From a virus (taxonomy: Duplodnaviria; Caudoviricetes), in the IMG/VR virus record IMGVR_UViG_3300029258_002378, positions 1 through 53,745 of that record: a stretch of 53,745 nt of DNA, one strand, 5' to 3'. Positions 1 through 53,745 of this stretch are shown here, piece after piece. The translations under genes and the position numbers were made by a program. The notes beneath the pieces are model-generated. The model was not told the DNA's origin, searched no databases, and worked only from the letters and a program-made list of their open reading frames with translations. Every line of letters begins with the position of its first letter. Position 1 is the stretch's first letter.

Positions 1-144
1 AAAAGACTTTCAATTGCTCTCGCAATTTTTTAGTCAGTTTGAATGATTCGATTTCTCCCTGAGTGGGCACTGCACTGTCAAATAAGTGGACGGCTGTTTG
101 ATCCTTTGGGTTGGGGACAGTAACTCCTCGAAATCTGTATGATG
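1..144. repeat. Terminal direct repeat, left copy (circular-assembly overlap)
   Basis: Bases 1-144 are identical to 53602-53745, and the primase-helicase reading frame runs through the join. Confidence 0.95.
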
Positions 145-1543
145 TGTTACTTTTCAATCCATGCCCAGTAAAGTATGCGTTTCGCATTACGTATTGAGCG
201 GCGTGACTTTCAATAGTGGGAATGAGAATCAATTGCTCAACGTTGAACACTTTAACGGGTTCAACCTGCACGTTACACCCCGGTTTTGCGTTAAATCCCG
301 CAAGCTTTGCAAGGATCTTGTCGCGTGTTGTCCTCGGAATATCGATAAGTTCGAGAATACGTTCATTTGATGGGTCTAATGTAATCTCTCTAAACTCAGC
401 ATCAACTTCGGCCAGGGGACAGTCATCACAAGATTTATTACATGAAACGCGGTACGTTTCCGGTAAGTCATATGGTGCAGCTGACTTTCCCGATACAATT
501 GCATCAACTTCAATTCTTTTTCCAAACGTTGATGCTTCGCTAGCCATATCAAGTCGGACATGGACAAGCTCTTTGTTTACTTCTGTATTCTCGGGGTTTT
601 CAACAAGTAATGATGCACGGTGAATCCGTGTTAACCACCCCCCGGGATTTTGCATCTGGGGTTTGTTGTGAATCCAATCGCCAACGTCTTTACCGTACCG
701 TTTCGGAACCACTAATTTCTTAACGATGCCGGCAATGTCTCGTAATTCTCGAAATACTTTGGATTGCCCCTCCCGTCCCGCTTTGTCGTTATCATAGACG
801 AGTGTAACTTCAAGCCCCCGAAATTCGTTGTTGTATTGAGATGGCCATGATCGTGCACCCGCCGTGGATGTAACGGTGGGAATTCCCATCGATATAAGTG
901 CAAGTGCATCCCACTCCCCCTCACAGATGATAACATATCCCTCCTCTTTTGCATCAATCATTGCCCCGTATGGATACAGATGGGGAGGAGATCCGAATTT
1001 ACGTTTTTCCTGGGGGTCAGTATGGTTTATCATCTTGGGGAATTTCGGATCACCTCCCGCCAAATACAGTCGAGCATTGACAATGAGACCGTACTCATTG
1101 ATAACGGGGAAAACGAATCGCCGACCATTCCACCCAAGACGAAAACGTTTGATTGCTTCAATAGTTAAGTCTCTGTTGTGCAGCGCGTATCGTAATGCCA
1201 TCGGTGTATTGAGTAAAGCAGTATGCCACGCTTTTATTTTAGTGGGGGATATAATTGGCTGAATGTAGCGTACAAATAACTCGATGGCTGCCTGTTTCAG
1301 AGATAATCCTTCAACTTGGGCATGGAACGAAACAATCGATTTCCCCCCTTGCTCACATCCATGACAATACCATGCACCAGTTTTTGGATTAACATGCAAA
1401 CTTGGTGTTTTCTTATCATCGTGCAGTGGACATAACACACGGGGTTCAGTACTATCGTCAATCCATCGAATCTCTGGGAATGTATCGGTGTAATATTGCT
1501 TTGGATCAACAGTTGACTTTACATGGTGCACAAGTGAGGGCAT
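1..1543 (-). CDS. N-terminal half of DnaG-type primase / MCM helicase fusion (continues over the join to 52286; ~952 aa)
   Basis: Not in the ORF track because it runs off the edge. ATG at 1543 is in frame with 52286..53671. Manual translation gives a CHC2 zinc finger (CPLHDDKKTPS...WYCHGC), Toprim motifs (ICEGEWDA, VYDNDKAG, KDVGDW) and a second Cys cluster (CNKSCDDC). The frame was spot-checked at these motifs, not at every codon. Confidence 0.9.
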   Translation of the reverse strand, partial: MPSLVHHVKSTVDPKQYYTDTFPEIRWIDDSTEPRVLCPLHDDKKTPSLHVNPKTGAWYCHGCEQGGKSIVSFHAQVEGLSLKQAAIELFVRYIQPIISPTKIKAWHTALLNTPMALRYALHNRDLTIEAIKRFRLGWNGRRFVFPVINEYGLIVNARLYLAGGDPKFPKMINHTDPQEKRKFGSPPHLYPYGAMIDAKEEGYVIICEGEWDALALISMGIPTVTSTAGARSWPSQYNNEFRGLEVTLVYDNDKAGREGQSKVFRELRDIAGIVKKLVVPKRYGKDVGDWIHNKPQMQNPGGWLTRIHRASLLVENPENTEVNKELVHVRLDMASEASTFGKRIEVDAIVSGKSAAPYDLPETYRVSCNKSCDDCPLAEVDAEFREITLDPSNERILELIDIPRTTRDKILAKLAGFNAKPGCNVQVEPVKVFNVEQLILIPTIESHAAQYVMRNAYFTGHGLKSNTSYRFRGVTVPNPKDQTAVHLFDSAVPTQGEIESFKLTKKLREQLKVF

Positions 1544-1634: not shown

Positions 1635-2603
1635 TCACTTGGTCTTTGCCTTGCACTCCTTGATAAGCGTCAGTACTTTGTCAAACGACCCGGCGACTTC
1701 GAGATGTTCAGCAATGTCACAGAGCAAGTCTACATAGGACTCGTAGTCGTAGGGATCGAACTCATGCGATGTGGCGAGTGTCTTGATCGCCTTCTTCTGG
1801 GAAGCGTTCAAGTCATCATCGGTAAACGAGACTTCTACGGTGCCGTCACCGCCGTCACCCTCGTCTTCCTCTTCGTCTTCGCCGTCATCGCCCCCACTTT
1901 CCTCCTCTTCGCCCTCTTCGACTTTCAGATCGTCGATGGGGTATTCGCCTTCGTCGCCGTCATCAAACGCGACGCTGACAGTTCCTTCCTTATCGTTAAT
2001 CCCGTTGATCTCGCCAGTGTAGTCGGCTCCGTCGATTTCAACAACGCAGCGATGACCAATTTCCCAGCCATCCTCTTCGCCGTCTTCCTCTTCGTTTTCG
2101 CTGTCATCACTCCAATCTTCGAGATCCTCGGCATCAACGTCATCGCTGTCAAGCGCTCGGTTAAAGTAGACGTTCTGAATGTCCGAGTCGCCCTTTGTGC
2201 GAGCAGTTACTTCGGCAAATGTGCCAATGACCTCCTCTTCGAGCATGTCGGGAATGTCGGTCGCTTTTTCCGGCCAGTCGATGCCGAGTCGTGCGAGTCC
2301 GCCCCTGAACCACCCGAGATTCGTCTCATCTTCCATACCGTCGTGCTTGAACAGCATTCGCCCTTTGTGTTCGCCACTGACGATCTTCATCTGCCATGAA
2401 CACTGGAAACGGCCCGATGATTTGCTGTGATTAAGTACTGCGGCAGTAATCTGAACTTGGTAGCGTCCATCGGGGATGTCTCCAAATGACGATTCCTCGA
2501 CATCACCCCAGACGCCTTCGAGTTCCTCGAGCGACGACATTACGTCCACTGTTCCGTGCTCGTCGCCCTTTTTCACTGCCTTTTTTCGTGCTTTCTTGGC
2601 CAT
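1635..2603 (-). CDS. DUF669-like single-stranded DNA-binding protein with acidic linkers and an internal Tudor-like domain
   Basis: FGDIPDGRYQVQI...GEHKGRMLF pattern; lies next to a Sak4-like ATPase; SD AAGGAG precedes ATG 2603; Tudor-like segment WEIGHRC...VAFDDGD. Confidence 0.75.
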   Translation of the reverse strand: MAKKARKKAVKKGDEHGTVDVMSSLEELEGVWGDVEESSFGDIPDGRYQVQITAAVLNHSKSSGRFQCSWQMKIVSGEHKGRMLFKHDGMEDETNLGWFRGGLARLGIDWPEKATDIPDMLEEEVIGTFAEVTARTKGDSDIQNVYFNRALDSDDVDAEDLEDWSDDSENEEEDGEEDGWEIGHRCVVEIDGADYTGEINGINDKEGTVSVAFDDGDEGEYPIDDLKVEEGEEEESGGDDGEDEEEDEGDGGDGTVEVSFTDDDLNASQKKAIKTLATSHEFDPYDYESYVDLLCDIAEHLEVAGSFDKVLTLIKECKAKTK

Positions 2604-3369
2604 TAGGATTGGCTCCTTCAAACGTTTGAATGAACTTAGCGCCATCGAGTAATTCACGTTCCGAGCGACGCCTACTCGTTACGCGATCCTTTGCATAGAG
2701 ACTTTCACTTGGATTAGTTATGAGTACACGTACCTCCTGGCGTTTGCCACCAACTTTAATTGACTTAAATCCACAATATCCGATCAAATCACAGAGGGGA
2801 ATGAGCACATTCCATGCTGTTTTCGATAACGCCGGCATTGTTCGCTCGAGTTGTATAGATTTCGTGCGAACTGTTTTTATTGTTTCGTGGGCAATAAACA
2901 CAACACCAAGGTCAAGTTTCAGAAGCAATTGGATATATGCGTGCATGGTTTTCCGAAACGCCGCCCACCCTTTACCGTATTCCGCATCGGACAATGCTTC
3001 AATTCCGAGTTGATCGCATACATGATCTTCACAGATATTTGCAAAGTCATCGACATGGTCAATAGCGATCATGTTATATGGTTTACATGCACCCGGCTTC
3101 GTCAATGCTCGTGCCACTTTCATAAAATCCTCAAACTTGTGACACTCAACTCGCATCGCTGAAACGAATCGTGTTCCCCTGTCTGTTGATAGGAACAGCA
3201 CCCGCCCCAAATCTTTAACGAATGTCGTTTTGCCTACGCCTGGTGGACCATAGAACATCGTAATGTAATCGGTTATCGATGTCGCTACGAACGATGGTTC
3301 TGTGGGTAATTTGAATCCACTAGGCTTTACTCCCCTTTTCTTTGCAGTTATTTTCTTTCGTGGCGGCAT
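2503..3369 (-). CDS. Sak4-like / AAA_24 P-loop ATPase (recombination, ssDNA annealing)
   Basis: Walker A YGPPGVGKTT, Walker B IAIDH, YGKGW and VVFIAHE motifs; lies between nuclease and SSB. Confidence 0.85.
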   Translation of the reverse strand: MPPRKKITAKKRGVKPSGFKLPTEPSFVATSITDYITMFYGPPGVGKTTFVKDLGRVLFLSTDRGTRFVSAMRVECHKFEDFMKVARALTKPGACKPYNMIAIDHVDDFANICEDHVCDQLGIEALSDAEYGKGWAAFRKTMHAYIQLLLKLDLGVVFIAHETIKTVRTKSIQLERTMPALSKTAWNVLIPLCDLIGYCGFKSIKVGGKRQEVRVLITNPSESLYAKDRVTSRRRSERELLDGAKFIQTFEGANPNGQESTKKGSEKGRRARNSGRNVVARGTRRRLG

Positions 3370-18451: not shown

Positions 18452-20746
18452 ATGCCAAGTTTGCTGAAGGATCCTCGTTATATTCAAGCAGCTTCGTCAG
18501 TGAATGATACGTTGGCGAATGCTGCTATTCGTCACAGTGTTTATCTCGAGCACTTTAAGACGGGTGAAGTACGAAAGATAATAACACTGCTTAATCGTGA
18601 TGTCTTTCCAGACATTATCGAGAATTATGGGCGACGGCTGAGCAATATTGCTACTCGAGGATTCGACACTGGTCCAGCAACAACGCAACGTATAGCGAAC
18701 TTGGTAAAATCAACACGAGCACAGATTGGTGCTGGTGTGCAGCTCGCTGGTGGTACACTCGTTAAGGACATGAAGGATTTTGCATTAACAGAGGCAGAAT
18801 GGCAACGTGCAATCCTATCGAAATCTGTTCCTTTAGATTTGCAATTTACTCTTCCTTCTGTGCAGCAATTACGTAGCATTGTGACAGCACGTCCGATGCA
18901 GGGGGCATATATTAAACAGTGGTTCGATTCGCTTAGTAAATCGTCCCAATTGAACTTCGTTCAGCAATTGAATATTGGACTAGTGCAGGGGGAATCTGTC
19001 CAACAGTTAACACGTCGTCTTGCAAGTAAAGGGGGTGTTCTTGATCAAACACGTCGGCATATCCAAACGCATGTTCGTACAGCGGTCAACCACGTCTCAA
19101 CTCATGCACGAGAAGCAACGTATGAAGCAAACGACGATGTAATAAAAGCCGTGCAAATCGTTGCTACACTTGATGCACGAACGACTGATATCTGCATGGC
19201 GCAAGACGGGAAGACGTATCCTATTAACGAAGGATGGCGTCCACCTGGTCATCATCAATGCCGTACCACAACTGTCCCCATAACAAAAAGTTGGAAAGAG
19301 TTGGGCATTAAGGGGTTAGATGCTCCTCCTGCTGGTACACGAGCATCAATGAACGGACAAGTGCCTGCACGTCAAACGTACGGTGCGTGGTTGAAAAAGC
19401 AACCGAGAAAAGTACAGAATTCAATACTGGGCAAAGAACGAGCAGAGCTATTCCGTCAAGGCAAAGTACCGATTACAAAGTTCGTTGACCATCGGGGTAA
19501 ATCGTACACACTCGAACAACTGCGTCGGAAAGAGGGATTACGTACTGTACATGAGCAAGCACCGATCCCCACTGACCCCCTTATTTTACAGGAGGAAATT
19601 AACGATCTTCTTGCTCAGTTGCAAGTAGCGACAGATCCCAAAGTGAAGAAGCGTCTTCGTGCAGCGTTGAGGAAGCGTGGTCATAGGGGTGGCTTAAAAA
19701 AGACGACCGTTAAAAAGAAAACGAAAAAGAAGGTAACGCCTAAACCCCCCATTACATCGGATAAACCCGATATTCCAAGACGTGGTCAACCTGATCTACC
19801 CAAACTGCCCGAGCAAGCATTGACGGGCAAGCAAGTAGAAACAGAGGCACGAAAGTTGATTGCACGTCGTAACGGGTTATCTGAGGCGCAACTCAAGAAA
19901 ACTCGTGCATCGATCCGTCAACTTGAAAAGCAGCGCGATAGTATCGCTAAGCAAATTGAATCGAGGTATCTCAAAGGTGAGTTGGGGGATTTGAACGCTC
20001 AGATTAGCAGTGTTCGAGCTGGAAGAATTAGTGGGCAATTAGCGGAAAGGGTCACACAAGATTATCGCCGTGTAAATCGGGGAATGCAGGCAGAAATTAG
20101 GAGTCGCACCTCTCATATTAACGATCAAATCCAATCACTTAAGGACTCAATGCGGGTGAACATGAAAGGGGTAAAAGAGGAGATTCACGCGCTACTTCGT
20201 GTACCTTTATCTGAGCGATCATTAGTCAAAGCATTTTTTGAACGTAGCATTACTAGTCTGCATGTTCAAGAAGACATCAAAGAATCAAGCAGATGGCTTA
20301 GTAATGTCCTGTCAAAAAGGAGTGTTAAGCACGTGGGCGTAAATGCGGGGCAATTGATAACAGGGGGACGTCCATATCATAGCGTGGGAACGATTTACAT
20401 TGCTCCTGATAATGGGCTGAAAACAATCTTGCACGAAATTGGGCACTTGCTTGAGTTCCATAATCCGAAGTGGAAGCGTGCAGCGAATGCATTCTTATCC
20501 AAGCGTACAGCGGGGGAACGCGCTCAATCACTAAGAAAACTTACAGGATTATCGTATAGAGCGGATGAAGTTGCGAAACCTGATAAGTTTATTCAGGCTT
20601 ATATGGGTAAGATTTACAAATCACCATCTACTGAAATATCATCGATGGCGTTAGAAATGCTGTACGCTGACCCGGTTAAGTTATTACAAAAGGACCCGGA
20701 AATGTTCAGGTGGATTGTGGATATGTTACATGGAGTAGAGATATGA
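18452..20746 (+). CDS. MuF / SPP1-gp7-like minor head protein with long C-terminal extension ending in a HExxH metallopeptidase-like domain
   Basis: ATLDARTTDIC...PPGHHQCRT MuF motif; TILHEIGHLLE and a downstream TEISSMALE. Confidence 0.88.
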   Translation: MPSLLKDPRYIQAASSVNDTLANAAIRHSVYLEHFKTGEVRKIITLLNRDVFPDIIENYGRRLSNIATRGFDTGPATTQRIANLVKSTRAQIGAGVQLAGGTLVKDMKDFALTEAEWQRAILSKSVPLDLQFTLPSVQQLRSIVTARPMQGAYIKQWFDSLSKSSQLNFVQQLNIGLVQGESVQQLTRRLASKGGVLDQTRRHIQTHVRTAVNHVSTHAREATYEANDDVIKAVQIVATLDARTTDICMAQDGKTYPINEGWRPPGHHQCRTTTVPITKSWKELGIKGLDAPPAGTRASMNGQVPARQTYGAWLKKQPRKVQNSILGKERAELFRQGKVPITKFVDHRGKSYTLEQLRRKEGLRTVHEQAPIPTDPLILQEEINDLLAQLQVATDPKVKKRLRAALRKRGHRGGLKKTTVKKKTKKKVTPKPPITSDKPDIPRRGQPDLPKLPEQALTGKQVETEARKLIARRNGLSEAQLKKTRASIRQLEKQRDSIAKQIESRYLKGELGDLNAQISSVRAGRISGQLAERVTQDYRRVNRGMQAEIRSRTSHINDQIQSLKDSMRVNMKGVKEEIHALLRVPLSERSLVKAFFERSITSLHVQEDIKESSRWLSNVLSKRSVKHVGVNAGQLITGGRPYHSVGTIYIAPDNGLKTILHEIGHLLEFHNPKWKRAANAFLSKRTAGERAQSLRKLTGLSYRADEVAKPDKFIQAYMGKIYKSPSTEISSMALEMLYADPVKLLQKDPEMFRWIVDMLHGVEI

Positions 20747-21139: not shown

Positions 21140-21152
21140 GAGGAGTAACACA

Positions 21153-41394: not shown

Positions 41395-41592
41395 TCAAGC
41401 GGCGGGGTTGAATCCTACGCGCTGCTTGAATGTCGTCAACCGATTGTTGATTATTCGGCGAATTACTCGTCCATGCGACATTCCACGCCCCGCACACCTG
41501 GCAATTGTTCGAGCGATTACCCTTTCTCGTGCAGTGTTAACACGGCGCGCTAGCTCACGATCCATGTAAGCAATGGTGATTTGACGTTTCAT
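41395..41592 (-). CDS. Small basic hypothetical protein
   Basis: Between 41596..41808 and the terminator; Arg-rich. Confidence 0.55.
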   Translation of the reverse strand: MKRQITIAYMDRELARRVNTARERVIARTIARCAGRGMSHGRVIRRIINNRLTTFKQRVGFNPAA

Positions 41593-41595
41593 GCT

Positions 41596-41808
41596 TTATG
41601 ACTTTGTCGTAATAGTGACGGTGATGGCGTCGATCCCTTCAACCGCCTTCTTGTCAAGATAAACATTAGTGACGACTGCGTCTTCCTCTTCGTCGACTCG
41701 GAACACTGCCTTTCGCTTTGTGTCCCGTTCCCTTTGCATTACGACTTCGGCGATTACGTTCGTTGTTGCCGTCTTCTTTGTCGTTGACTTCTTCGTTGTC
41801 GCTGGCAT
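41596..41808 (-). CDS. Small protein with N-terminal TTKKSTTKK tail
   Basis: SD AAGGAG; MPATTKKSTTKKTATT followed by a short beta-rich domain. Confidence 0.8.
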   Translation of the reverse strand: MPATTKKSTTKKTATTNVIAEVVMQRERDTKRKAVFRVDEEEDAVVTNVYLDKKAVEGIDAITVTITTKS

Positions 41809-42790
41809 TGACTTGCTCCTTTTTAATCCTTGAGCGTGCTGACTTGATGCCGCCCCTGATTCCTCTGCTACGTAGCAGTTGACGGATACGGCGCTGTTCT
41901 ACCCGATTTCCCTTATCATATTGTTTCACAAGCAATTCTAATGATGTATTGTCGATCGTTTGCTGTAATGCAGCTCCTTTCTGTCCCTTCTTGCCTTTCG
42001 ATGCAGCAACGCCATCGAACACTGCACCATGTAGTAGTGAGGGAACTTTGCCATCGAGCGCCATTGCTGTGGATGTCACATCGATATTTAATGTGAGCGC
42101 GGGTTCGCCAGGGAATTCGCTTTCGATACGGAATTGTCTTGCACCACCACATCGTAATGCTGTGTCTCGCACTGTCGTCAAATCAAGAATGATTCGATCA
42201 AGTGTGGCAGACGACTTAATTGTGATGGCTGGATGATCCGCACGTTTCCGAATATCATCGATGGACTCATGTCCTTCTTCGTTTCCCTCATGGCGATAAA
42301 TGAACTTGTTGATTGCCGCACAGATATCAGCGTCCAACGACTTCTGTCTTTCGCGGGGGTCCTTGTCATAGTAGTACGGAATGGAGTCGAGCACATATGA
42401 GTGTTCGCCTTTCCGTGCATACAACCAAATTACCCAGCAATCGACTTCATCAATTGTTCGTGTACGACTCCAGAATCCCCAGAAATGAAAATCGCCAACA
42501 TCAACTGTTAGATGTGTCTTTGTATGGTCCCACTTAACGTCGTATTGGCAGAACCCGATATACTCCTGTTTAGTTGCATCGCTTGATTCGTTGTCTTCGA
42601 GATCGGATGAAGGAACTAGTTCATCGACGGGTACAATCAAACGATCGCCATCTTCAAAGTGAACGAGTGCCGTACCGTTACGGCGACATTGCTTTACTGT
42701 TCCGGGATAGTCTTCTCCGTTATCTGACCATATTACTGAGGTTCCTTTCTTGAGCTTTGTCGTCCTTGACGTTTCACAGTGTTTACCCAT
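41666..42790 (-). CDS. Multi-domain protein: N-terminal Tudor-like domain and C-terminal basic helical module
   Basis: SD AAGGAG; GTSVIWSDNGEDYPGTV...VHFEDGD; QRRIRQLLRSRGIRGG. Confidence 0.8.
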   Translation of the reverse strand: MGKHCETSRTTKLKKGTSVIWSDNGEDYPGTVKQCRRNGTALVHFEDGDRLIVPVDELVPSSDLEDNESSDATKQEYIGFCQYDVKWDHTKTHLTVDVGDFHFWGFWSRTRTIDEVDCWVIWLYARKGEHSYVLDSIPYYYDKDPRERQKSLDADICAAINKFIYRHEGNEEGHESIDDIRKRADHPAITIKSSATLDRIILDLTTVRDTALRCGGARQFRIESEFPGEPALTLNIDVTSTAMALDGKVPSLLHGAVFDGVAASKGKKGQKGAALQQTIDNTSLELLVKQYDKGNRVEQRRIRQLLRSRGIRGGIKSARSRIKKEQVNASDNEEVNDKEDGNNERNRRSRNAKGTGHKAKGSVPSRRRGRRSRH

Positions 42791-42877
42791 AAGCGTTGCT
42801 CCTTTACGTGCAAGAGTGCACGTTATCTCAACGTCTTGTCAATGTAAACTGACATCGACTGGGAAAAGAAAATCATT

Positions 42878-43111
42878 TTATGCGCCCGGTTCACGATGTT
42901 TTAACTGCAAGATCATATCGTCCTTCTTGATTCGCGGTATATGTCGTCGCAGCCGTCGGAAGGAACGAATCTTGATTACCCTTTTCGTCGTTAAGTTGGT
43001 TCCGACGTAACCACCATTGGGTAATTCGTAATCGATGCGAACTGGGACAATCTTGCCCGACACTTTTACTGCATATATGCCACCAACGTATACATCTGCT
43101 TTCCGAACCAT
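42878..43111 (-). CDS. Small basic beta-rich hypothetical protein
   Basis: SD AAGGAG; VGGIYAVKVSGKIVPVRI...GTNLTT. Confidence 0.8.
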   Translation of the reverse strand: MVRKADVYVGGIYAVKVSGKIVPVRIDYELPNGGYVGTNLTTKRVIKIRSFRRLRRHIPRIKKDDMILQLKHREPGA

Positions 43112-43129
43112 TGTGTTCTCCTTGCGTTA

Positions 43130-43369
43130 CTACCAGTTACGGTAGTCATCACGAAGCGAAATATACGATTCAAGCCAGGCGGACAATGGCAACGATCGAA
43201 GTCGTAGCACGCCAACACTTGACGAATACCAGCTACATGATGCATTATGAGAAAAGTACCAATAACCACGACCGGGCGACAGTTGAACATCATCCCCCGT
43301 ATGTGCTTTAATGAAACGTTCAACTTCACGAGCAGTTCGTGGTCTACGATCGGGAGTGAGGTCAGTCAT
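43130..43369 (-). CDS. Hypothetical protein
   Basis: Probable start MTDLTP just after the upstream stop codon. Confidence 0.6.
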   Translation of the reverse strand: MTDLTPDRRPRTAREVERFIKAHTGDDVQLSPGRGYWYFSHNASCSWYSSSVGVLRLRSLPLSAWLESYISLRDDYRNW

Positions 43370-43377
43370 CGTTGTTT

Positions 43378-43632
43378 TTACGCCGGCCTGATATGACAAC
43401 CGAATGATGCCCAGCGACCATCTGCGAACGGCCACTGCTTGAATGGCGAATATTTAACAACTCTGACTACTGTGTTATCCCCCCGCCGTTTGATGATTGC
43501 AGTGATATCCGTCTGTGACTCCGGCCAACACGAATCGTAGCGAAGCATATCCATCGGAAATGCACCAGTGAATGTAATCCTTGCTACGTGCCGCCACTTC
43601 ATGGGTTCGATTAACTTGATCGGGTTTGGCAT
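43378..43632 (-). CDS. Hypothetical protein (FPMDMLRYD motif)
   Basis: SD AAGGAG; G.FP.DMLRYD.C.P...RW.SFG pattern that I recall from small phage early proteins. Confidence 0.75.
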   Translation of the reverse strand: MPNPIKLIEPMKWRHVARITFTGAFPMDMLRYDSCWPESQTDITAIIKRRGDNTVVRVVKYSPFKQWPFADGRWASFGCHIRPA

Positions 43633-43749
43633 TACGTTACTCCTTGTAAACGTGTAGTTTTAAAACAAGAAAGCGGCGAGGGGCGTTCCCGCCGATCGCC
43701 ACGTATACTTCATGCTAATCGCTCAGTATGATACGTGAGCGATTGGTTG

Positions 43750-44208
43750 TTATGACTTCTTGGTCGTTGACTTCTTGGTCGTTGACTTCTTCGCCGTCTT
43801 CTTCGCCGTCGACTTCTTTGTCGTTGACTTCTTGGTCGTTGCACGAACACCGAGTCCCCCCGTATGTCCCCGACGACGAAGTGCACGACGAATCCGCTTC
43901 TTATCCTCGGGATCATCCGATGTCTTCAGCTCAGCGAGCAAATCCTTAACCTCCTTTTCAATCTCAGCCGGTGTCATTTCTTCGTGCAGTGAACGACGTC
44001 CCCGCTTCGAGATCGTCACATCACCGCGCTTCACTGCTGCGGCAGTGTACGTATGAGTTTCACCATCATCGAATTCGACAGTGATATTCCCCTTCGCTGT
44101 CTTGACGACTGAACCGCCGTACGTTTCACCGTCGCTCCACAGTGCATTGACGCGCTGTCCATCAGTGAATGAAACCGTGGCATTTCCGTTATTGTTACGA
44201 GTCGACAT
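43750..44208 (-). CDS. Tudor-like domain + basic helical module + H1-like KKSTT tail
   Basis: SD AGGAG; GQRVNALWSDGETYGGSV...VEFDDG; KKRIRRALRRRGHTGGL; TTKKS repeats. Confidence 0.85.
   Translation of the reverse strand: MSTRNNNGNATVSFTDGQRVNALWSDGETYGGSVVKTAKGNITVEFDDGETHTYTAAAVKRGDVTISKRGRRSLHEEMTPAEIEKEVKDLLAELKTSDDPEDKKRIRRALRRRGHTGGLGVRATTKKSTTKKSTAKKTAKKSTTKKSTTKKS
43753..43810. repeat. 58-bp direct repeat, copy 1 (15-bp and 12-bp tandem units encoding KKSTT/KKTA)
   Basis: Identical to 45477-45534. Confidence 0.92.
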
Positions 44209-44335
44209 TGCTTTGCTCCTATTACAAAGCGATTTAAAAAGTGGCAATCATCATCAGATCATGTCCGCCACGACATGATGACGTGCTCAGTCATGGAGCA
44301 CGTTTCGATTTACATTGTCAAGGCCCCCATCTCGA

Positions 44336-44533
44336 TCAAGATACTGTTTCCCACAAATGAAAACCATCAAGATCGATTACTAATCGAACGTAACCGTGAC
44401 GCTCGAGCTCTTTCATCTTGTCGTAGAATGCGCCCGCGCTCATGCCGTGGTCGATTCGGATCTTACCGACTGGACGTGGACCGTTTCGTTTGAGATAAGC
44501 GATGATCCGCTTGTCGAAGTCGTTGAGTTCCAT
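44336..44533 (-). CDS. Small winged-helix DNA-binding protein
   Basis: LNDFDKRIIAYLKRNG...MSAGAFYDKMKELERHGYV (AsnC/MarR-like wHTH); SD AGGAG. Confidence 0.75.
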   Translation of the reverse strand: MELNDFDKRIIAYLKRNGPRPVGKIRIDHGMSAGAFYDKMKELERHGYVRLVIDLDGFHLWETVS

Positions 44534-44586
44534 TGTGCCGTCTCCTGTGTTGTATGCTACGCGCTATGAATTGCTCGCGTGTTCAT

Positions 44587-44772
44587 TTATGTGGCATTGC
44601 GGACAAGACGTCGAATCTGCCGCTTCCATGTCGCCATGTCATCAGTGTGAACATTGAATGTTCCTAGCCAACGACCACGAATTGTTGATACGCTCCACAC
44701 TTCTCTACTATTACGTAGAGCACGAATAAATTGGACATCATAACGCTTATTGTTGATTCGCACTGTCATCAC
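44587..44772 (-). CDS. Small hypothetical protein
   Basis: SD AGGAG; first ORF after the structured leader. Confidence 0.65.
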   Translation of the reverse strand: MMTVRINNKRYDVQFIRALRNSREVWSVSTIRGRWLGTFNVHTDDMATWKRQIRRLVRNAT

Positions 44773-44799
44773 TCATACTCCTGTTTAGACGTGCATGAA

Positions 44800-44839
44800 G
44801 AAACGAAAATACAGCTCAGCGCGTTTCCGCGTTGAGCTG
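44800..44839 (-). terminator. Terminator-like hairpin with GAAA loop
   Basis: Minus strand CAGCTCAACGCG-GAAA-CGCGCTGAGCTG followed by TATTTTCGTTTC. Confidence 0.7.
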
Positions 44840-45136
44840 CTAGATTTACTCGGGGGCAGTTTTCCGATTTGCACGACTTTGCGGTCAAGCACCTACGTGC
44901 GGAGTTCGCCGGATTCACGGATCAATGTTCAGAGCCATATTTCGCGAGAAGGGGTAAACATCGAGCGCTGACCGGCCAAACCTCGGTAAGGTTGAGAATC
45001 GTCATTCTCGGGCGTCGCTGAGTTGATTCGTTGTTTTCCCCTTCGCTCCTCAGACATCGTTGTTCCGATCGGAACGTTTCCAACGTTGCCTGGCACAACT
45101 TGAAGGGGATCGCGGCGTTTCGTGTCAGCGCCTGGT

Positions 45137-45148
45137 TGTCAAAGAGCA
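45137..45148 (-). promoter_or_regulatory. boxA-like antitermination element TGCTCTTTGACA
   Basis: One mismatch to rrn boxA TGCTCTTTAACA; lies at the predicted transcript start. Confidence 0.75.
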
Positions 45149-45155
45149 CAGGGTC

Positions 45156-45184
45156 ATTATCGTAGATGCCGGGGGGTATCGCAA
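45156..45184 (-). promoter_or_regulatory. Sigma70-type early promoter
   Basis: TTGCGA-17 bp-GATAAT on the minus strand with an AT-rich upstream segment. Confidence 0.7.
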
Positions 45185-45361
45185 GGAAAAATGAGTATTT
45201 TCGCTAAAATTGTGGAGATTTTCAGGTGATACCCCGCTTTACGCCCCCGAAAACGCCGGTACGAACATTCCCCTAAGACGCCCTTTCCCAATTTGACACC
45301 TCCCAAAACTGGGTTAAAGATGACCAGTGTGTCATCTTTTAACGGTGGCATTATCGACACG

Positions 45362-45393
45362 AAAAATACCCCCGCCAAGTATGGTGGGGGCAT
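45362..45393 (-). terminator. Rho-independent terminator after the H1-like gene
   Basis: Minus strand ATGCCCCCACCA-TACT-TGGCGGGGGTAT followed by TTTT. Confidence 0.75.
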
Positions 45394-45425
45394 CTTGTGT
45401 CAATGAGTAACAATTGCCAGCGGCG

Positions 45426-46193
45426 TTATGCGGCGGGGCTACGTGTTTTTTTCTTGGTCGTTGACTTCTTGGTCGTTGACTTCTTGGTCGTTGACTTCTT
45501 GGTCGTTGACTTCTTCGCCGTCTTCTTCGCCGTCTTCTTTTGATCGCTGATGCGATATCCTTGCGCTCGCAGTCGAGCACGAATCTTCCTCTTCTCCGTT
45601 TGATCCTCTTCGTGGTCGAGCATGGCCAGCAATTGATCGATTGTATGCTCTGGCTGTCGACCGCCCGTCTTCTTCGTTGTTGTCTTCTTTGCTGTTTTCT
45701 TAGTTGTCTTCTTCTTGGCCATTTGTTCGTGTCCTTTCACGTTTGACCATTTAGAGAATGAGCGCTCAGATTTTCTGAGTCGACTGAAACGAGTACACTC
45801 GGCGTTGAATTCTCGAGCAGTTTTTGTTGACCGCTTTTTCAAGTCATCGAGTGTGGACAATCCTCGTTCAATGTTGGCAATGATTCGGTCTGCTTCCTCC
45901 TTATGCTTTCGTAATACGATCATTTCTTGTCGTAATCGATCGGCCGATTCCGAAGTGTTCTGTACTAGTCTGTGATACTGAGCTATTTGCTCTCGATTCC
46001 TTGGTTCAACTGGACGTCCAGGACGATACGGGTTTAGATCGAACTTGAACCCTTCGATACGCAAATCCTTAGTTGCCACCATTTTGTACAGTTTAGTACG
46101 TGTCTTCTTGTGTGCGGATTCAAGGTCGTCCCGTATCTTTGTGAGAGTGGTGATGAACTGCTTCGGTGTTTGTTGTCTCGGTGTGCGGGGCAT
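45426..46193 (-). CDS. Coiled-coil protein in frame with a histone-H1-like C-terminal part (own SD/ATG at 45722)
   Basis: AAAGGA before internal MAKKKTTKKTAKK; module IDQLLAML...KRKIRARLRAQG; KKSTT repeats. Confidence 0.75.
   Translation of the reverse strand: MPRTPRQQTPKQFITTLTKIRDDLESAHKKTRTKLYKMVATKDLRIEGFKFDLNPYRPGRPVEPRNREQIAQYHRLVQNTSESADRLRQEMIVLRKHKEEADRIIANIERGLSTLDDLKKRSTKTAREFNAECTRFSRLRKSERSFSKWSNVKGHEQMAKKKTTKKTAKKTTTKKTGGRQPEHTIDQLLAMLDHEEDQTEKRKIRARLRAQGYRISDQKKTAKKTAKKSTTKKSTTKKSTTKKSTTKKKTRSPAA
45477..45534. repeat. 58-bp direct repeat, copy 2 (inside a longer TTCTTGGTCGTTGAC x4 array from 45451)
   Basis: Identical to 43753-43810. Confidence 0.92.
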
Positions 46194-46280
46194 GGAAAAG
46201 ACCCTTGGGGATATAGAACAATCACAGACTCGAAGCGTATATTACCAAACTCGTAGTCGAGTATCAGTATTTTTTTCCAT

Positions 46281-46343
46281 AAAAAAGCCCCCGTCGGGAA
46301 GGAGCAAATACGTGCAACACGCTTTTACCCGCCGGGGACTTTT
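46281..46343 (-). terminator. Terminator-like hairpin with a ~30-nt loop after DNA polymerase
   Basis: Minus strand AAAAGTCCCCGGCGGG...CCCGACGGGGGC followed by T6. Confidence 0.7.
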
Positions 46344-46505
46344 CAACAGTTGCGAACAATGGTGGATTTGCGTTGACCACGTTGGTCATTGCGAAAAGAA
46401 GTCCATATCCTAACTGCCTTATTCGATTGCTCTACTTCATGTCACACCTCCTCTTGTTGGTTATGTCTCTATCACTCCCCTGGAAAAGAGAGCGTATTGT
46501 AACAA

Positions 46506-48617
46506 TTACGCTGCTCGCATGAAGCCATATTTTTTTGCTTTTTCCTTGTTCCCCCAGTGGGACCCATTAACCTCAACATCCGCAGTAATTGGGACAAAGA
46601 ATGAGTCGTAATCTTCCATAATATCAAGCACCAATTGTGGCACAATGTTTTCTTCATTGCGGGGAATCTCAAGAACAATCTCATCGTGGATGGTCTTGAT
46701 GATCTTTGATCGTAGTTTACGCTCTTTAAGCTCCTTCCAAATCGTGACCATTGCAACTTTGATCTGGTCGGCCGATGTCCCCTGACACATATAATTTAGA
46801 GCGGTGTATGCACGACTTAGACGGATATGATATCGACGTCCAAACGGATTGGTTACAAACCCCTTCTCTGCAAGGATTGCTTTGAGTTTATTCGTTGTTC
46901 GTCGTACTGATGGAAATGATCGATGATATGATGCAACTAGTTTGGATGCCTCTCGCTTTGTTGTTGGTAATCCCTTCCTTGTCAATGTTTCAGCTTGTGT
47001 GCCTGGACCTGACCCATAGATGATCCCAAAGTTTACCGCTTTTGCTCGTTTGCGTTGCTCTTTTGTAACCTCACGTTTTGGTTTGTTATATATTTCCGCA
47101 GCAACGGCGAGGTGGATATCATCTGCAATTGCTCGTGCCATTATCTCATCTTTAGCGAAGTGCACAAACATTTTCATTTCGACTTGCTCGTAATCGAAAT
47201 GCCAATTTCTACGTCCGTTGCGGGGGATGAAACATTCCCGAGGACCAAAGACACGTGGTACATTTTGCAAGTTGGGGCTTGAGGACGAGAATCGTCCTGT
47301 CATTGCTTCACTCTGATTGAATCGACAATGCAATATACCAATCTCTCTGCCGCTCGACGTAACATGCACATTTGTTGCTTCGTTAATAATGTGGTCGTAA
47401 TACGTAGAAACCATTTTCAACAATCGGCGACAATACAACACAAGTGGAGGTAATAATTCTCTCCGATTGAGTTTATGGTTTCGACGTACTGCATGTACGG
47501 CATTGTAGAATTTTCGACCACTCCATCCCTCCTCACTCGAATCACGAATAATCGATGCTAGCGGCTTACTAACATAGCGGATAATGGCGTACTCATCGAA
47601 ACTCCAATTGCCCCCTCCTGTCTTTGCACCACCCTTCTTTCCCTTCTTCGGTTTAGTCTTATATTTCAGAGGGATTCCAACTTTGTTGAACGCCGCTTCC
47701 ATTTGCAGTCGACTATTTGGATTGAATCGATCTGATATCTCAACTTCAATTTCCTCGCCCTTCCGCTTCTTTTTGACCTTGATGGGGAGAACGAGGCGAT
47801 CGAGTATTCTTTGCATGAGTTCAATATCGCGTTGTGCCTCCGTACGTAATTCCTTTGCTCGTGTTATGTCAACTTGCACACCATGATCTTCCATCTCGAT
47901 GCACACGTACATAAGCATAAGTTCGGTTTCAAGTAATTCCGGAGATGCTTTAACAACGCGCTGCCGTATCGCAAACCACAGTAGTAATGTCGTTTCAACA
48001 TCCCAGTAGACGCGCTTCTTTACTGATTCAATTGGTGCATCATCAAAGCCAAGTTTGAATCCCCGATTTTTCACTTTCGCTTTTGTGTTCTCTTTTCTCA
48101 ACCAATCGATAATCTCAAACTTATCAGCTGTCGATCGTCCTAGTAATCGATCACCAAGGAATGCTAGCTTGTGTGACGGCAACATGCCATTGTACAGCTT
48201 ACTAATGATGAGCGTACATTCGATCCTTGCTTTAGCGTTGTATATGTCAACGCCTTCTTGAGCAAACATTTTCAAATCAAACTTAGCATTGTGGAAGACA
48301 ATAGTAAGTGTGGAGTCATTGAACAACCGCTTTATCCATGTGATATTCGCCGATGTGTTCAGCATGAAACCCCGCTCACCCTTTTCCGTTATGTACGCCC
48401 AACAGAATATTCTATCGCCGTGATAAGGGTCGAGTCCTGTCGTTTCCGTATCAAGTGCAATGACTTTGCCTTTTAAGCAAGGTCCGCTTGACGCATCGCT
48501 ACAGTTTCGACTCCGCAATTTCTTAGCACGTCTCCCCCGTCGCCGTTCCTGTACTCCGAAAGGAAGATGACCTTGCATATCCCCGCTTGGACGATTCGTT
48601 GAGCACACATTTTGCAT
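46506..48617 (-). CDS. polA: Family A DNA polymerase with 3'-5' exonuclease (start uncertain)
   Basis: Exo I ALDTETTG, Exo II FHNAKFD, TGRFSSSSPNLQN, motif A DYEQVE, motif B RAKAVNFGIIYG, motif C IHDEI. Confidence 0.95.
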   Translation of the reverse strand: MQNVCSTNRPSGDMQGHLPFGVQERRRGRRAKKLRSRNCSDASSGPCLKGKVIALDTETTGLDPYHGDRIFCWAYITEKGERGFMLNTSANITWIKRLFNDSTLTIVFHNAKFDLKMFAQEGVDIYNAKARIECTLIISKLYNGMLPSHKLAFLGDRLLGRSTADKFEIIDWLRKENTKAKVKNRGFKLGFDDAPIESVKKRVYWDVETTLLLWFAIRQRVVKASPELLETELMLMYVCIEMEDHGVQVDITRAKELRTEAQRDIELMQRILDRLVLPIKVKKKRKGEEIEVEISDRFNPNSRLQMEAAFNKVGIPLKYKTKPKKGKKGGAKTGGGNWSFDEYAIIRYVSKPLASIIRDSSEEGWSGRKFYNAVHAVRRNHKLNRRELLPPLVLYCRRLLKMVSTYYDHIINEATNVHVTSSGREIGILHCRFNQSEAMTGRFSSSSPNLQNVPRVFGPRECFIPRNGRRNWHFDYEQVEMKMFVHFAKDEIMARAIADDIHLAVAAEIYNKPKREVTKEQRKRAKAVNFGIIYGSGPGTQAETLTRKGLPTTKREASKLVASYHRSFPSVRRTTNKLKAILAEKGFVTNPFGRRYHIRLSRAYTALNYMCQGTSADQIKVAMVTIWKELKERKLRSKIIKTIHDEIVLEIPRNEENIVPQLVLDIMEDYDSFFVPITADVEVNGSHWGNKEKAKKYGFMRAA

Positions 48618-48901
48618 GGGAACACCGTGGTGAACATTATCATTTCATTCTCGAATGAACGAAGGGCCAAGATTGCGTTTTCTTCGGCATGTAAACAACC
48701 ACAATTACCTTGTATGCCACTACAACTATCGTGACTGAGTCCCTTTGCTGGTCCATTGTATCCAATAGACAAGATTCGTTTCATGTCACCAGACGTAATG
48801 ACAGCTCCGACTCGGAGACGTTTACATAGTGAACGATTTGCCCACATGAGCGCTGTTTTCATGTGCAGCGATTCACGACTTGGTCTATGTGTACTTTGCA
48901 T
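48473..48901 (-). CDS. dCMP deaminase
   Basis: RSLCKRLRVGAVI, GYNG, HAEENA and PCKMC. Confidence 0.92.
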   Translation of the reverse strand: MQSTHRPSRESLHMKTALMWANRSLCKRLRVGAVITSGDMKRILSIGYNGPAKGLSHDSCSGIQGNCGCLHAEENAILALRSFENEMIMFTTVFPCKMCAQRIVQAGICKVIFLSEYRNGDGGDVLRNCGVETVAMRQADLA

Positions 48902-49701: not shown

Positions 49702-50286
49702 TTATTGCCTATCCTTTGTCCAGTTTTTTACCCATTCAAGTTGACGACGTAACACACGCCGTCCATTATGGCCACAGCGCATACAATACGCTGGGTGATA
49801 TCCAAATCTCATGTTAGTGCCATGAGGAAAGAGTAATGATTGATGAAACCAGCATGATCCACGAGTATAATCTTTACGTGAAAATCCAAGCGCATTGAAC
49901 GCAACGTTGCCCATAATAAGGACAGCACGTGGTCGGATGATATCCATTTCAGCAATGATGTACCGCCCGCACTTTGCAATCTCATTATCTGTGGGGTTTC
50001 GATTGTGGGGTGGACGGCATTTAACGACGTTGGTAATCCATACTTTGTCGAGGATTTGCAATTCTCGTAGTACATCGTTAAGTAATCGCCCACATTGCCC
50101 CGAAAACACTTTGCCTGTCAATGCTTCGTTTGCACCCGGCGCTTCACCGAGTAATACGACGTTAGCAAGAGGATTTCCCCGACCAACAATGCATACATGA
50201 TCGGATGAACGATGGAGAGTGCAATGCCGGCAACGTGGATTATGTACGCCGCGTATTTTCGCGAGTTGTCCTCGACGTCCAATCAT
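49702..50286 (-). CDS. Family 4 uracil-DNA glycosylase (Fe-S type)
   Basis: CRHCTLH, GEAPG, TNVVKCRPP.NR.P and YHPAY. Confidence 0.9.
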   Translation of the reverse strand: MIGRRGQLAKIRGVHNPRCRHCTLHRSSDHVCIVGRGNPLANVVLLGEAPGANEALTGKVFSGQCGRLLNDVLRELQILDKVWITNVVKCRPPHNRNPTDNEIAKCGRYIIAEMDIIRPRAVLIMGNVAFNALGFSRKDYTRGSCWFHQSLLFPHGTNMRFGYHPAYCMRCGHNGRRVLRRQLEWVKNWTKDRQ

Positions 50287-51856: not shown

Positions 51857-51858
51857 TG

Positions 51859-52311
51859 CTATACTCCTTGTTTTGTGACGAGTTGGTAACCCAGCACACA
51901 GTATCCCAATAAGTCGAGCAATGTGTCGTGGATTGATTCGCCACATTCCTCATCTCGTAATTGCTGAGTCAAATTCGCAATGCGAACAACTTTTGAGTCA
52001 ATCCGAATAAACACTCCCAATACTCCCCATCGAAGAATTGGTGCACTCCCATATGCTGAGTGTTTTCGTAGTAAAAAATCAGCAAATGTGCCAATATCAA
52101 ACCCCTTTTTGTCCTTTAACATCGAAACTACGATTGCACCAAACGAAATGAAGAACTCTTGAGGATTATCGAACGTAACACCCTTATGGAATGTTCTGTT
52201 TATGCTATCTGTCATCTGGAATAGCACATAATTCCCCGTCACTGGGGGATTACGATCGAGCATTTGTTCAATGACCGGAATAATGTCATCCTTTGTTTCG
52301 ATTAGCAGCAT
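51859..52311 (-). CDS. Nucleotide-modification-associated domain 1 (DUF1599-like)
   Basis: RKHSAYG...RIDSK..RI.NL...ESIHDTLLDLLGY; SD AAGGAG. Confidence 0.8.
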   Translation of the reverse strand: MLLIETKDDIIPVIEQMLDRNPPVTGNYVLFQMTDSINRTFHKGVTFDNPQEFFISFGAIVVSMLKDKKGFDIGTFADFLLRKHSAYGSAPILRWGVLGVFIRIDSKVVRIANLTQQLRDEECGESIHDTLLDLLGYCVLGYQLVTKQGV

Positions 52312-53745
52312 TGTGTTTTCTCCTTGAGTAGTTACGTAACCACATGACGAAATCTGGGTTTTTCATGTATCCCCGTCCATCATCACGACGCGCTAAGCAT
52401 CTAATCTGAACTAGCCCGCCAATTAAGTCTTTTGCAGTAATAATGTCACCAATAAAATCGCCGAGTGATTCAGGTGTGACATAACGACAATTAAGCAGTG
52501 CTTGCATAACTTTTTCTTTGCCCGTTGGTACCCACTGGTCAATGACTTTTTCAATCTCATCTGTTGTTGCCATTGTCGTTGACTGCTTGATGATTCGACT
52601 ATACGTATCGTATGCTAGACTTTGTTTTGCATACGCTTCTCGTAAAAACGAACAAGCATATCGAACATGACTTGCTTGAACGATAAGTACCTCTCCCGTT
52701 TTGTCTGAACTAAATGTACGTGCAGCAACAGCTGCTGCGATCTTTGCAATCTTTACTCGGATATTCTCTCCTTGTACGAGAGGAATTGTAGCCGAGTATT
52801 TGCTTCCAAAGCGTATAGCCGAATCAATCACTGTTCGTGTTGCTTCATTTGTGAATTTGACTTGGTCGGGTTTTCGACTCCACGCCCATAGCACAAGAGC
52901 ACGACACAATGAAATAGGGTATTTTTCTCCATCAGTAAGATCATCAGTGCATAAAGCATTAATAATCTCACTTGGCACTTCATCAGTGGCAACGCTTAAT
53001 ACAAAGTCGAATCGACTGATATCTTCGTTATTTCCCACAAGTTCACGAACTGCTTCTATACCCGTATTGTATGATCGTAATGGGCGTCCGCTTCGAGGAT
53101 TTGACAACCATATCAATCGAGTGTTTGCTTGTGTTGCTTCTTTGACGATCTTTGTAATTTCGGCAACACCTTCTGATCGTACTCGTGACATTCGGCCAAA
53201 GTCATTTGGATCCAATGCAGATGCTTCATCTATAACTACAAGTCGGTTGTTATTTAATGGGATAACACCCCATGTTATAAACCACCGCTTTGATACTTGC
53301 TGTACACCCCCAACAAGCCCAGCGAACGAGCAATTTTCACCTGATGCAACTTCGCCTAGTTTATAGAATCGACATAGACGTTCAGTAACATATCCTTTCC
53401 CGCATCTTGTATCTCCAATGACCAGCACATCGAGCATTCCTCGGGAGATTTCCTCACCGTTGAACTCAAACGCTGCAACGCTATGAAACACAAGATCAAC
53501 AGCAATGTGTAGATCAGGACGATACCGAATTTTTGTTACATGGCGTGATTGCCAATCTGCTATGTCGTTAAGATGTACGTTGATCTTACGTCGACCGGGC
53601 GAAAAGACTTTCAATTGCTCTCGCAATTTTTTAGTCAGTTTGAATGATTCGATTTCTCCCTGAGTGGGCACTGCACTGTCAAATAAGTGGACGGCTGTTT
53701 GATCCTTTGGGTTGGGGACAGTAACTCCTCGAAATCTGTATGATG
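52286..53745 (-). CDS. C-terminal MCM-type AAA+ helicase half of the primase-helicase fusion
   Basis: RGMLDVLVIGDTRCGKG (Walker A region), SGENCSFAGL, W.ITWGVIPLNN...IDE (Walker B), SNP and ISRFD (Arg finger) match MCM box motifs. Confidence 0.9.
   Translation of the reverse strand, partial: SYRFRGVTVPNPKDQTAVHLFDSAVPTQGEIESFKLTKKLREQLKVFSPGRRKINVHLNDIADWQSRHVTKIRYRPDLHIAVDLVFHSVAAFEFNGEEISRGMLDVLVIGDTRCGKGYVTERLCRFYKLGEVASGENCSFAGLVGGVQQVSKRWFITWGVIPLNNNRLVVIDEASALDPNDFGRMSRVRSEGVAEITKIVKEATQANTRLIWLSNPRSGRPLRSYNTGIEAVRELVGNNEDISRFDFVLSVATDEVPSEIINALCTDDLTDGEKYPISLCRALVLWAWSRKPDQVKFTNEATRTVIDSAIRFGSKYSATIPLVQGENIRVKIAKIAAAVAARTFSSDKTGEVLIVQASHVRYACSFLREAYAKQSLAYDTYSRIIKQSTTMATTDEIEKVIDQWVPTGKEKVMQALLNCRYVTPESLGDFIGDIITAKDLIGGLVQIRCLARRDDGRGYMKNPDFVMWLRNYSRRKHNAANRNKG
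53602..53745. repeat. Terminal direct repeat, right copy
   Basis: Identical to 1-144. Confidence 0.95.

Follow-up and report, generated by a model that had tools for sequence, protein, structure and literature searches.

A portable helical module on Tudor-like barrel, coiled-coil and minor head proteins of a complete Caudoviricetes phage genome

Proteins at the locus

A phage of the class Caudoviricetes (IMG/VR record IMGVR_UViG_3300029258_002378) encodes several copies of a helical module of about 55 residues, most of them in a group of minus-strand genes at 41596–46193. The window, by which we mean the whole stretch of DNA analyzed, is 53,745 bp long and represents a complete phage genome, with direct terminal repeats and completeness rated at 100%. 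At the locus, a 152-amino-acid (aa) protein (43750..44208, with AGGAG before its ATG at 44208) combines a Tudor-like barrel (residues 12–66, 44011–44175), the module (residues 67–122, 43843–44010, with a KRGRRSL motif and a helical hairpin ending KKRIRRALRRRGHTGGLG) and a KKSTT-type tail (residues 123–152), the three-part composition given for it in the initial annotation of this DNA. A 374-aa protein (41666..42790) has an N-terminal barrel (residues 12–57, 42620–42757), a central domain (about residues 86–237), a divergent module at about 41849–41953 and a 45-aa extension; its listed Foldseek and VIA matches fell on the N-terminal barrel and gave the central domain no fold assignment. Upstream on the same strand, a 255-aa coiled-coil protein (45426..46193; isoelectric point [pI] 10.7) carries a KKTTKKTAKK tract (45666–45716), a module at about 45555–45698 and a KKTA/KKSTT tail (45438–45539). 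A 70-aa protein (41596..41808) starts with a TTKKSTTKKTATT tract (41759–41802) and has AAGGAG 6 nt before its ATG. The remaining copy lies on the plus strand, in the middle (about residues 379–417, 19586–19702) of a 764-aa MuF/SPP1-gp7 minor head protein (18452..20746); this copy is newly recognized, having been missed by the initial annotation.

The open reading frames (ORFs) of the 374-aa and 70-aa proteins, which are read in different frames, share 142 nt at the 3' end of the former. Contigs from four DNA sequencing runs agree with the window at 41500–43782, 43781–45480 and about 45505–46300 with 0 differences, including across the overlap at 41666–41808; the runs belong to three studies, which may include the source of the record, and are thus not independent of it. 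Orthologs of the 374-aa protein (P0007, L001:1469-2416 and L006:1981-3141) keep the module at the same place and end about 45 residues earlier than the window protein. A +1 frameshift joining the 374-aa and 70-aa ORFs was rejected as unnecessary, because P0007 and L001:1469-2416 stop about 15–20 residues after the module and the 70-aa ORF has its own AAGGAG.

Definition of the helical module

The initial annotation had proposed an undescribed modular system built from Tudor-like readers and lysine-rich tails. An undescribed modular system of basic proteins, in which barrels and Lys-rich tails are combined, is indeed present in this phage and its relatives, but the tails are not a conserved element, and the recurring unit is not the tail-and-reader set as it was named. 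Instead, it is what the annotation had listed as a basic module, which we find to be a conserved helical module with an RGRKxL motif and a helical hairpin ending KKRIRRALRxRGHxGGLG. In order, it is built from an RGR(K/R)xL motif resembling an AT-hook, an amphipathic helix (helix A), a D-x-D turn, a basic helix KKRIRRALRxRGH (helix B) and a Gly-rich xGGLG end. Orthologs of the 152-aa protein keep the barrel, RKRGRK and a near-invariant D-x-D-EKKRIRRALRRRGHxGGLG. In an AlphaFold2 (AF2) model of the 152-aa protein (predicted local distance difference test [pLDDT] 70.1), a barrel at residues 19–66 is followed by helices at 80–96 and 100–112 and a disordered tail.

A hidden Markov model (HMM) built from 58 module segments, with the window protein excluded, found four copies in the six-frame translation of the window, in the 152-aa protein (2.5e-26), the MuF protein (2.3e-15), the 255-aa protein (8.8e-6) and the 374-aa protein (0.0028); the next match was at E 0.73, and all of these E-values refer to the small six-frame window set. 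Helix B has a charge of +6 and the whole module +5, and the pI values of the proteins are 10.2–10.7. Across 53 proteins, the invariant surface residues are K103, K104, R107, R108, L110, R111, R113, G114, H115, G117 and G118. A two-copy complex prediction for residues 67–122 of the 152-aa protein, made with a 53-row alignment, scored 0.00, which speaks neither for nor against self-association. Searches of Pfam, NCBIfam and PHROGs assigned the module to no family; for the four tail or module proteins, PHROGs gave nothing better than E 0.005 and NCBIfam only noise.

Distribution of the module in relatives and databases

An exhaustive search with a profile of five orthologs of the 152-aa protein returned 516 proteins at E ≤ 1e-3. 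Among the 150 matches listed of these 516, the core motif was present in 59, with a median of 13 residues after it, and the motif-bearing proteins in this list were 54–211 aa long. Many matches cover only profile positions of about 65–125 and have unrelated N-termini, often disordered and basic. Some are little more than the module, and one has two modules. Partner domains also include KOW (in P0163) and S1 (in one member), and several relatives carry further short basic motifs of the KGKRA type.

Six related metagenomic contigs, obtained from one metagenome scan, contained 15 module matches at E ≤ 0.01, counting one 34-aa fragment at a contig edge. The module is C-terminal in 14–15 of their genes, three of which encode SprT-like proteases (L003, L005 and L006; Pfam E about 1e-9, above the cut-off), and modules are clustered in all six contigs. 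In L006, four tagged genes lie close together on one strand, encoding a barrel-less homolog of the 374-aa protein of the window, a 151-aa protein, a 451-aa protein and a SprT-like protease; the last three are consecutive, and L003 has the same three, also consecutive. L005 encodes a barrel-module protein and a tagged SprT-like protease, and in L001, as in the window, the genes for the 152-aa and 374-aa orthologs are close neighbors. The module is therefore a portable, mostly C-terminal unit found on several unrelated proteins per genome.

Scans of phage records and prokaryote genomes gave no confirmed copy of the module. A tblastn search against 50,697 phage records gave no match at E ≤ 0.01, a result from which the BLAST low-complexity filter may hide matches. 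A scan of species-representative prokaryote genomes gave six pattern matches, none confirmed, and scans of viral contigs with query A1 and with the portal protein gave 404 and 1 pattern matches, respectively, again with none confirmed. The ESM Atlas returned no usable match for the stand-alone module protein P0055, and a word-based search with the 53-row profile returned 41 proteins, none functionally named ("hypothetical protein" or nothing). Since the module is absent from Pfam, NCBIfam, PHROGs, and the phage records and prokaryote genomes scanned, we regard it as an uncharacterized domain family. One phage lineage thus places a portable module of about 55 residues on at least four unrelated proteins per genome, which makes the module a handle on how proteins are organized around phage DNA or inside the capsid.

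As for the copy in the minor head protein, the 764-aa protein passes curated cut-offs for Phage_Mu_F (38.3 bits versus 29.6) and TIGR01641 (41.9 versus 39.65), and its gene follows a DUF4055/SPP1-portal-like gene (16943–18448), which together place it in the MuF family. Its module is followed by a stretch rich in K and T, then by a coiled coil and, at the C-terminus, by a zincin-like HEIGH motif. Like the MuF/SPP1-gp7 polyvalent proteins described in the available part of PMC5512222, it carries extra domains, including the zincin-like motif; unlike them, it has an inserted module and a K/T-rich stretch that match no Pfam family, and that part of the paper does not mention such a module. We also observed that the C-terminus (20249–20743) aligns weakly around the HEIGH motif with the SprT-like proteases of the relatives (local E 0.003 over 22 residues), while Pfam gave no match to this region. 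It may be a fused counterpart of the separate, tagged protease of the relatives.

Tudor-like barrels

The Tudor-like domains predicted for the 152-aa and 374-aa proteins by the initial annotation, as well as a third in a single-stranded DNA-binding (SSB) protein, were borne out by structure prediction or profile search. AF2 models both of the former as five-stranded barrels (block pLDDT 75–86), with that of the 374-aa protein at residues 18–60. Foldseek matched both best, among PDB entries, to the Tudor domains of PHF1, PHF19 and PHF20, with template modeling (TM) scores on the target of 0.73–0.89, root-mean-square deviations of 1.0–1.6 Å and 24%–30% identity. Structurally, then, these are SH3-like barrels that superpose on solved Tudor domains. 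A barrel HMM built from 25 orthologs, with the window protein excluded, gave exactly three matches in the six-frame window, namely the 152-aa protein (5.4e-18), the 374-aa protein (9.1e-10) and, at about 1926–2036 on the minus strand, a DUF669 SSB-like protein (4e-5); the next was at E 1.1. Judged by these profile scores, the three window barrels are paralogs.

At the sequence level, the 152-aa protein matched Pfam Tudor_2 at E 8.6e-6 (25.9–26 bits, under the 31.4-bit cut-off) and the 374-aa protein matched DUF4537 at 16.2 bits versus a cut-off of 27, so that neither reached a gathering cut-off of the Tudor clan; orthologs matched Tudor_2 or Tudor_3 at E about 4e-8 (best 3.9e-8). The five-ortholog profile matched KDM4A double-Tudor chains at 4e-6, each single stretch being weak, and PHF20 at 9e-4. 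It also matched long proteins with up to 23 barrels that pass several Pfam Tudor families, one of them a brown-alga record. The phage family thus resembles the Tudor royal family (PHF1/PHF19/PHF20 and the KDM4A hybrid Tudor) in having the same five-stranded barrel and detectable sequence likeness. At the fold level, however, scores barely separate Tudor from KOW, PWWP and chromo barrels. In VIA comparisons, Tudor chains had Z 8.0–8.5 with KOW and PWWP within 1 Z, and the KOW domains of NusG and Spt5 were at Z 7–8, near the Tudor matches. Small barrels of a Tudor-like kind are frequent among uncharacterized phage proteins. We consider that the barrels here could serve as adaptor domains with a protein or nucleic-acid ligand.

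The third barrel lies in a 340-aa protein (1635..2657, minus strand) that matches DUF669 (E 3e-7) and a BAHCC1-like Tudor (0.0023) and has no module. We note that this barrel sits in an extremely acidic region (residues 176–300, 50 D+E versus 6 K+R) of a protein with pI 4.2. Such a region might pair electrostatically with the basic module and tails, a suggestion made from residue composition.

Aromatic cage, writer genes and SNF2 ATPase

Aromatic residues W24, Y30 and F46 are present at cage-like positions of the 152-aa barrel, in agreement with the initial annotation, and the window barrels share W-x5-Y and F-D-D-G signatures. In the five-ortholog profile alignment, the W..6..Y pair of the family lies opposite the W..6..Y of the KDM4A Tudor, whose cage is given as F932/W967/Y973 in the available part of PMC5114558. 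Across the family, the cage is not conserved. Among 26 orthologs, the W24 position is W in 7 and aromatic (W or F) in 10, the Y30 position is aromatic in 18 and the F46 position in 20. Only 8 of the 26 have an aromatic residue at each of the three sites; P0005 has none, and one ortholog has Leu at every site. For PHF1, the available part of PMC7492083 reports W41, Y47 and F65 as each essential for binding and F71 as less so. The fourth site, F71, corresponds to H52 or T53 by our own spacing-based and unchecked mapping, and neither column is a conserved aromatic in the orthologs.

No writer enzyme was found in the genome. Six-frame searches of the whole genome with SET, Methyltransf_25 and Pkinase gave no match at E ≤ 1, and Pfam found no SET, class-I methyltransferase or protein kinase among 39 window proteins; the initial annotation had likewise seen no SET writer. 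A writer could still be encoded by the host. Unlike established Tudor readers, then, the phage family keeps the triad in 8/26 members, lacks the fourth cage aromatic and has no accompanying writer gene. From the alignment, we would conclude that barrels in this family are not conserved methyl-lysine readers. As a side observation, some minus-strand genes of L006 and L003, including L006:7685-8398, look class-I methyltransferase-like and glycosyltransferase-like by sequence; a six-frame search of the window with Methyltransf_25 found no counterpart of the methyltransferase-like gene.

The SNF2-family ATPase listed by the initial annotation is encoded on the minus strand at 4773–6152 (SNF2-rel_dom core, 43.6 bits), in a context that is not typical of a chromatin remodeler. 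Its gene adjoins a PD-(D/E)XK nuclease (3674–4738, minus strand) and is accompanied by an AAA_24 ATPase (2503–3369, minus strand) and the DUF669 protein, and Pfam found no accessory chromatin domain in it. SNF2, PD-(D/E)XK, AAA_24 and DUF669 together form a common phage replication and recombination cassette. The ATPase is part of this ordinary cassette, and no evidence links it to the module proteins.

Lysine-rich tracts and their DNA repeats

A six-frame scan found lysine-rich tracts only on the minus strand at 43753–43845 (C-terminus of the 152-aa protein), 45438–45539 and 45666–45716 (both in the 255-aa protein), with a shorter tract at 41759–41802 (N-terminus of the 70-aa protein). This agrees with the three tract-bearing proteins reported initially. 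The 152-aa tail (43753–43842) has a net charge of +12 and, by hand count, 14 K in 30 residues. Tandem Repeats Finder reported a period of 15 with 6.1 copies at 43753–43841 and 4.3 perfect 15-nt copies at 45451–45515. The same 15-nt unit occurs in the 152-aa and 255-aa genes, alongside a common 12-nt unit. Since they are encoded by 15-nt and 12-nt tandem repeats, the tracts are not a product of chance composition, and the matching units in both genes indicate that both long tails represent a single cassette that was expanded or exchanged recently. At the 374-aa/70-aa junction, a short repeat copy (repeat family D2) encodes the N-terminal tract in the 70-aa gene and, in the other frame, an acidic stretch of the overlapping 374-aa gene.

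Conservation of the tails was low. The KKSTT-type tail is absent from all four of the closest orthologs of the 152-aa protein, which keep barrel and module, and a K/R-rich tail occurs in only 5 of the 27 module proteins that have at least 15 residues after the module. Lysine-rich H1-like sequences are known from chlamydial Hc1/Hc2 and the HupB tail. A further one is described for Streptomyces DdbA in the available part of PMC3643593. Like such tails, that of the 152-aa protein is of low complexity, nearly half Lys and carried by a small, DNA-associated-looking protein; unlike them, it is rich in Ser/Thr instead of Ala/Pro, derives from perfect 15-nt repeats and is not conserved in orthologs. 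Pfam Linker_histone and Hc1 gave no match at E ≤ 1 among nine proteins scanned. We suggest that the KKSTT tails are recent, labile tandem-repeat expansions that would add H1-like, non-specific affinity in this phage.

The contigs of the four runs end within the repeats that encode KKSTT, which leaves the exact number of repeat copies without independent confirmation. In runs X1–X4, we observed that summed contig depth rises about two- to four-fold over 43754–43914 and 45364–45685 and that many loose contig ends at the lysine-repeat DNA lead into other sequences. Similar K-rich coding repeats are therefore present at other places in these samples, whether in this phage or in different ones.

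Possible functions of the module

The reading that we favor, and hold tentatively, is that the module is a modular, sequence-unspecific tether for nucleic acid, most likely DNA. In this phage and in uncultured relatives it is attached, mostly C-terminally, to unrelated "head" domains (the 374-aa family, SprT-like metalloproteases, the coiled-coil protein, MuF, and small barrels of the Tudor-like, KOW or S1 kind), and as a tether it would place their various activities on the DNA of phage or host. We favor it because the unit is basic, an RGR motif precedes the hairpin, and the fused domains act on or with nucleic acid. Eukaryotic SprT/Wss1 proteases, for example, are DNA-dependent, and RGR minor-groove motifs are found in AT-hooks and in prokaryotic proteins of the H-NS/Lsr2 type. 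Like these, most members have an RGR core with basic flanks just before the hairpin.

Several observations weigh against a tether. Unlike in AT-hooks, the canonical Pro after RGR is absent and the motif is not invariant; the R-G-R-P core is replaced by KRGRRS in the window, and one of the first five orthologs has RGRKP. Helix A is acidic or mixed (-2), which makes the hairpin less basic than it appears. The module also shows no similarity to a known DNA-binding family, with noise (RPAP1_N and RecX_HTH3) as the best Pfam matches and no match of the module proteins to Pfam Lsr2 or H-NS. Its invariance is stricter than generic electrostatic DNA binding needs, which hints, as far as an alignment can, at one specific partner. 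The copy within a head protein would fit loading into the capsid equally well. If the module is a DNA tether, it would be a new kind of phage nucleoid-associated module.

Capsid loading is the main rival to the tether, and we consider it unlikely. Here the module would be a tag by which all tagged proteins enter the capsid and are injected along with the DNA, to serve as early effectors or as a DNA-protecting "virion chromatin"; the cargo would include the SprT-like protease and the MuF-zincin fusion as well as the H1-like and Tudor proteins. We keep this possibility alive because RGHxGGL is strictly conserved and one of the four window copies belongs to a minor head protein (MuF/gp7). Most tagged proteins have the tag at their very C-terminus, and its end recalls, in general description rather than by comparison, the Gly-rich C-terminal cargo-loading peptides of encapsulins. 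The zincin is a separate, tagged SprT-like protein in relatives and an HExxH-like motif fused to MuF in the window, and MuF proteins are head components fused to injected effectors according to the available part of PMC5512222. There is also a precedent in P22, where a C-terminal helix-loop-helix of the scaffold anchors the coat N-arm via R293 and K296 (available part of PMC9965877); like it, the module is a C-terminal basic helical hairpin of about 30–40 residues that acts as a portable tag, a likeness by description and not by sequence or structure comparison. The putative scaffold of the window (21135–21914) ends in a short basic ERLKAARRQG. However, this scaffold lacks the module and is not matched by its HMM, the N-terminus of the coat protein (21938–22867) is not notably acidic, and 30–345 residues follow the module in three of the four window proteins. 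The small tagged genes, moreover, lie on the replication-gene strand, outside the head operon. In a stronger version, which seems to us distinctly unlikely, the 374-aa family would join this cargo, the tag would place the whole set on the packaged genome within the capsid, and a pre-assembled virion chromatin of enzymes and DNA-coating proteins would be injected; if true, it would amount to a portable cargo-loading system of an HK97-type capsid, comparable to scaffold helix-loop-helix tags or encapsulin peptides. A capsid-loading tag of either kind would offer a ready-made tool for cargo encapsidation and link scaffold tags with encapsulin targeting peptides.

Three further readings are less probable. 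It is quite improbable, in our view, that the module, the barrels or both are docking tags that recruit the fused domains to one specific protein of the host or the phage, for example RNA polymerase, the ribosome or a replisome hub. Tudor-like domains do dock UvrD/PcrA, Mfd and CarD onto RNA polymerase. The exposed RGHxGGL is near-invariant over 53 divergent proteins whose N-terminal partners are Tudor, KOW or S1 barrels, the VIA scores of NusG and Spt5 KOW domains point the same way, and a Tudor-like domain is described on the bacterial repair ATPase UvrD1 in the available part of PMC11975281; but no partner emerged, and the species-representative prokaryotes yielded no confirmed match and thus no host homolog hinting at a cellular pathway. 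The chromatin-like network of the initial annotation, in which Tudor cages read methylated or phosphorylated KKSTT tails, DNA is compacted, the replisome is recruited and SNF2 remodels, is very improbable, and a methyl-mark reader network is unsupported. The W, Y and F of the window barrels, the pair aligned with KDM4A and the barrel in the SSB-like protein are in its favor, but the triad is kept by a minority of orthologs, the fourth cage site is not a conserved aromatic, the genome encodes none of the writers looked for, orthologs with barrel and module lack tails, and SNF2 belongs to a recombination cassette. The result sets right the appealing idea of a "histone-code in a phage", which is unsupported. 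Hardly credible, finally, is the absence of any system, with the tails arising by neutral slippage and the module likeness of the 255-aa and 374-aa proteins by low-complexity convergence. Pairwise BLAST between the window paralogs is weak (module parts at E 3.1, 0.003 and 0.039) and assemblies break inside the repeats, but this explanation is largely refuted by the separation of the four copies from the rest of the window by the family HMM, the clustering of modules in all six related contigs and the constant module position in 374-aa orthologs.

Genome context

Of the four module genes, all but that for MuF are on the minus strand. Minus-strand genes at 1–12,200 and 41,400–53,745 serve replication and nucleotide metabolism, and include a family-A DNA polymerase, SNF2, PD-(D/E)XK, AAA_24, DUF669, ThyX, dCMP deaminase, uracil-DNA glycosylase (UDG), dUTPase and MazG. 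An ORF at 2..1543 runs over the window ends into 52286..53743 and encodes a DnaG-primase with an MCM-like ATPase. The plus-strand genes (12,700–40,800) encode RuvC, the terminase large subunit, portal, MuF, putative scaffold, coat and tail proteins. The initial description of the genes at 41596–46193 as early was not confirmed; their place is the distal end of the block of replication genes on the minus strand. No 9-mer was common to three or more of 28 upstream regions searched for promoter words, and promoter-like and terminator-like counts were not above those of shuffled sequences.

The phage is distant from those in the databases. Against 50,697 phage records, the family-A DNA polymerase had a best identity of 24%, and a DNA search with the region of the module and tail genes gave zero matches. 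Sequencing runs labeled as sediment or seawater metagenomes hold near-identical DNA, with no RNA run among those listed.

Several further features were noted. Between the 255-aa gene and the next minus-strand gene, about 650 bases (44773–45425) have odd composition, only short ORFs and no family matches, and Rfam gave nothing at E ≤ 0.1 there. Genes for nucleotide metabolism and modification are dense on the minus strand at 48473–52311 and 6677–9442, encoding dCMP deaminase, a thymidylate-synthase-like protein, a UDG-superfamily protein, dUTPase_2, DUF1599, ThyX, TSCPD and MazG. The match to DUF1599 ("nucleotide modification associated domain 1") is weak. A gene set of this kind hints that the phage DNA contains a modified base.

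A type II hammerhead ribozyme was found on the minus strand at 44239–44310 (RF02276; 47 bits versus a gathering score of 37, E 1.4e-6), as a full-length model match with CUGAUGA and CGAAAC cores. The six related contigs had none at E ≤ 0.01. It lies between a winged helix-turn-helix gene (44533..44336) and the ATG (44208) of the 152-aa gene, a position at which, if active, it would cleave a polycistronic RNA just upstream of the barrel-module gene.

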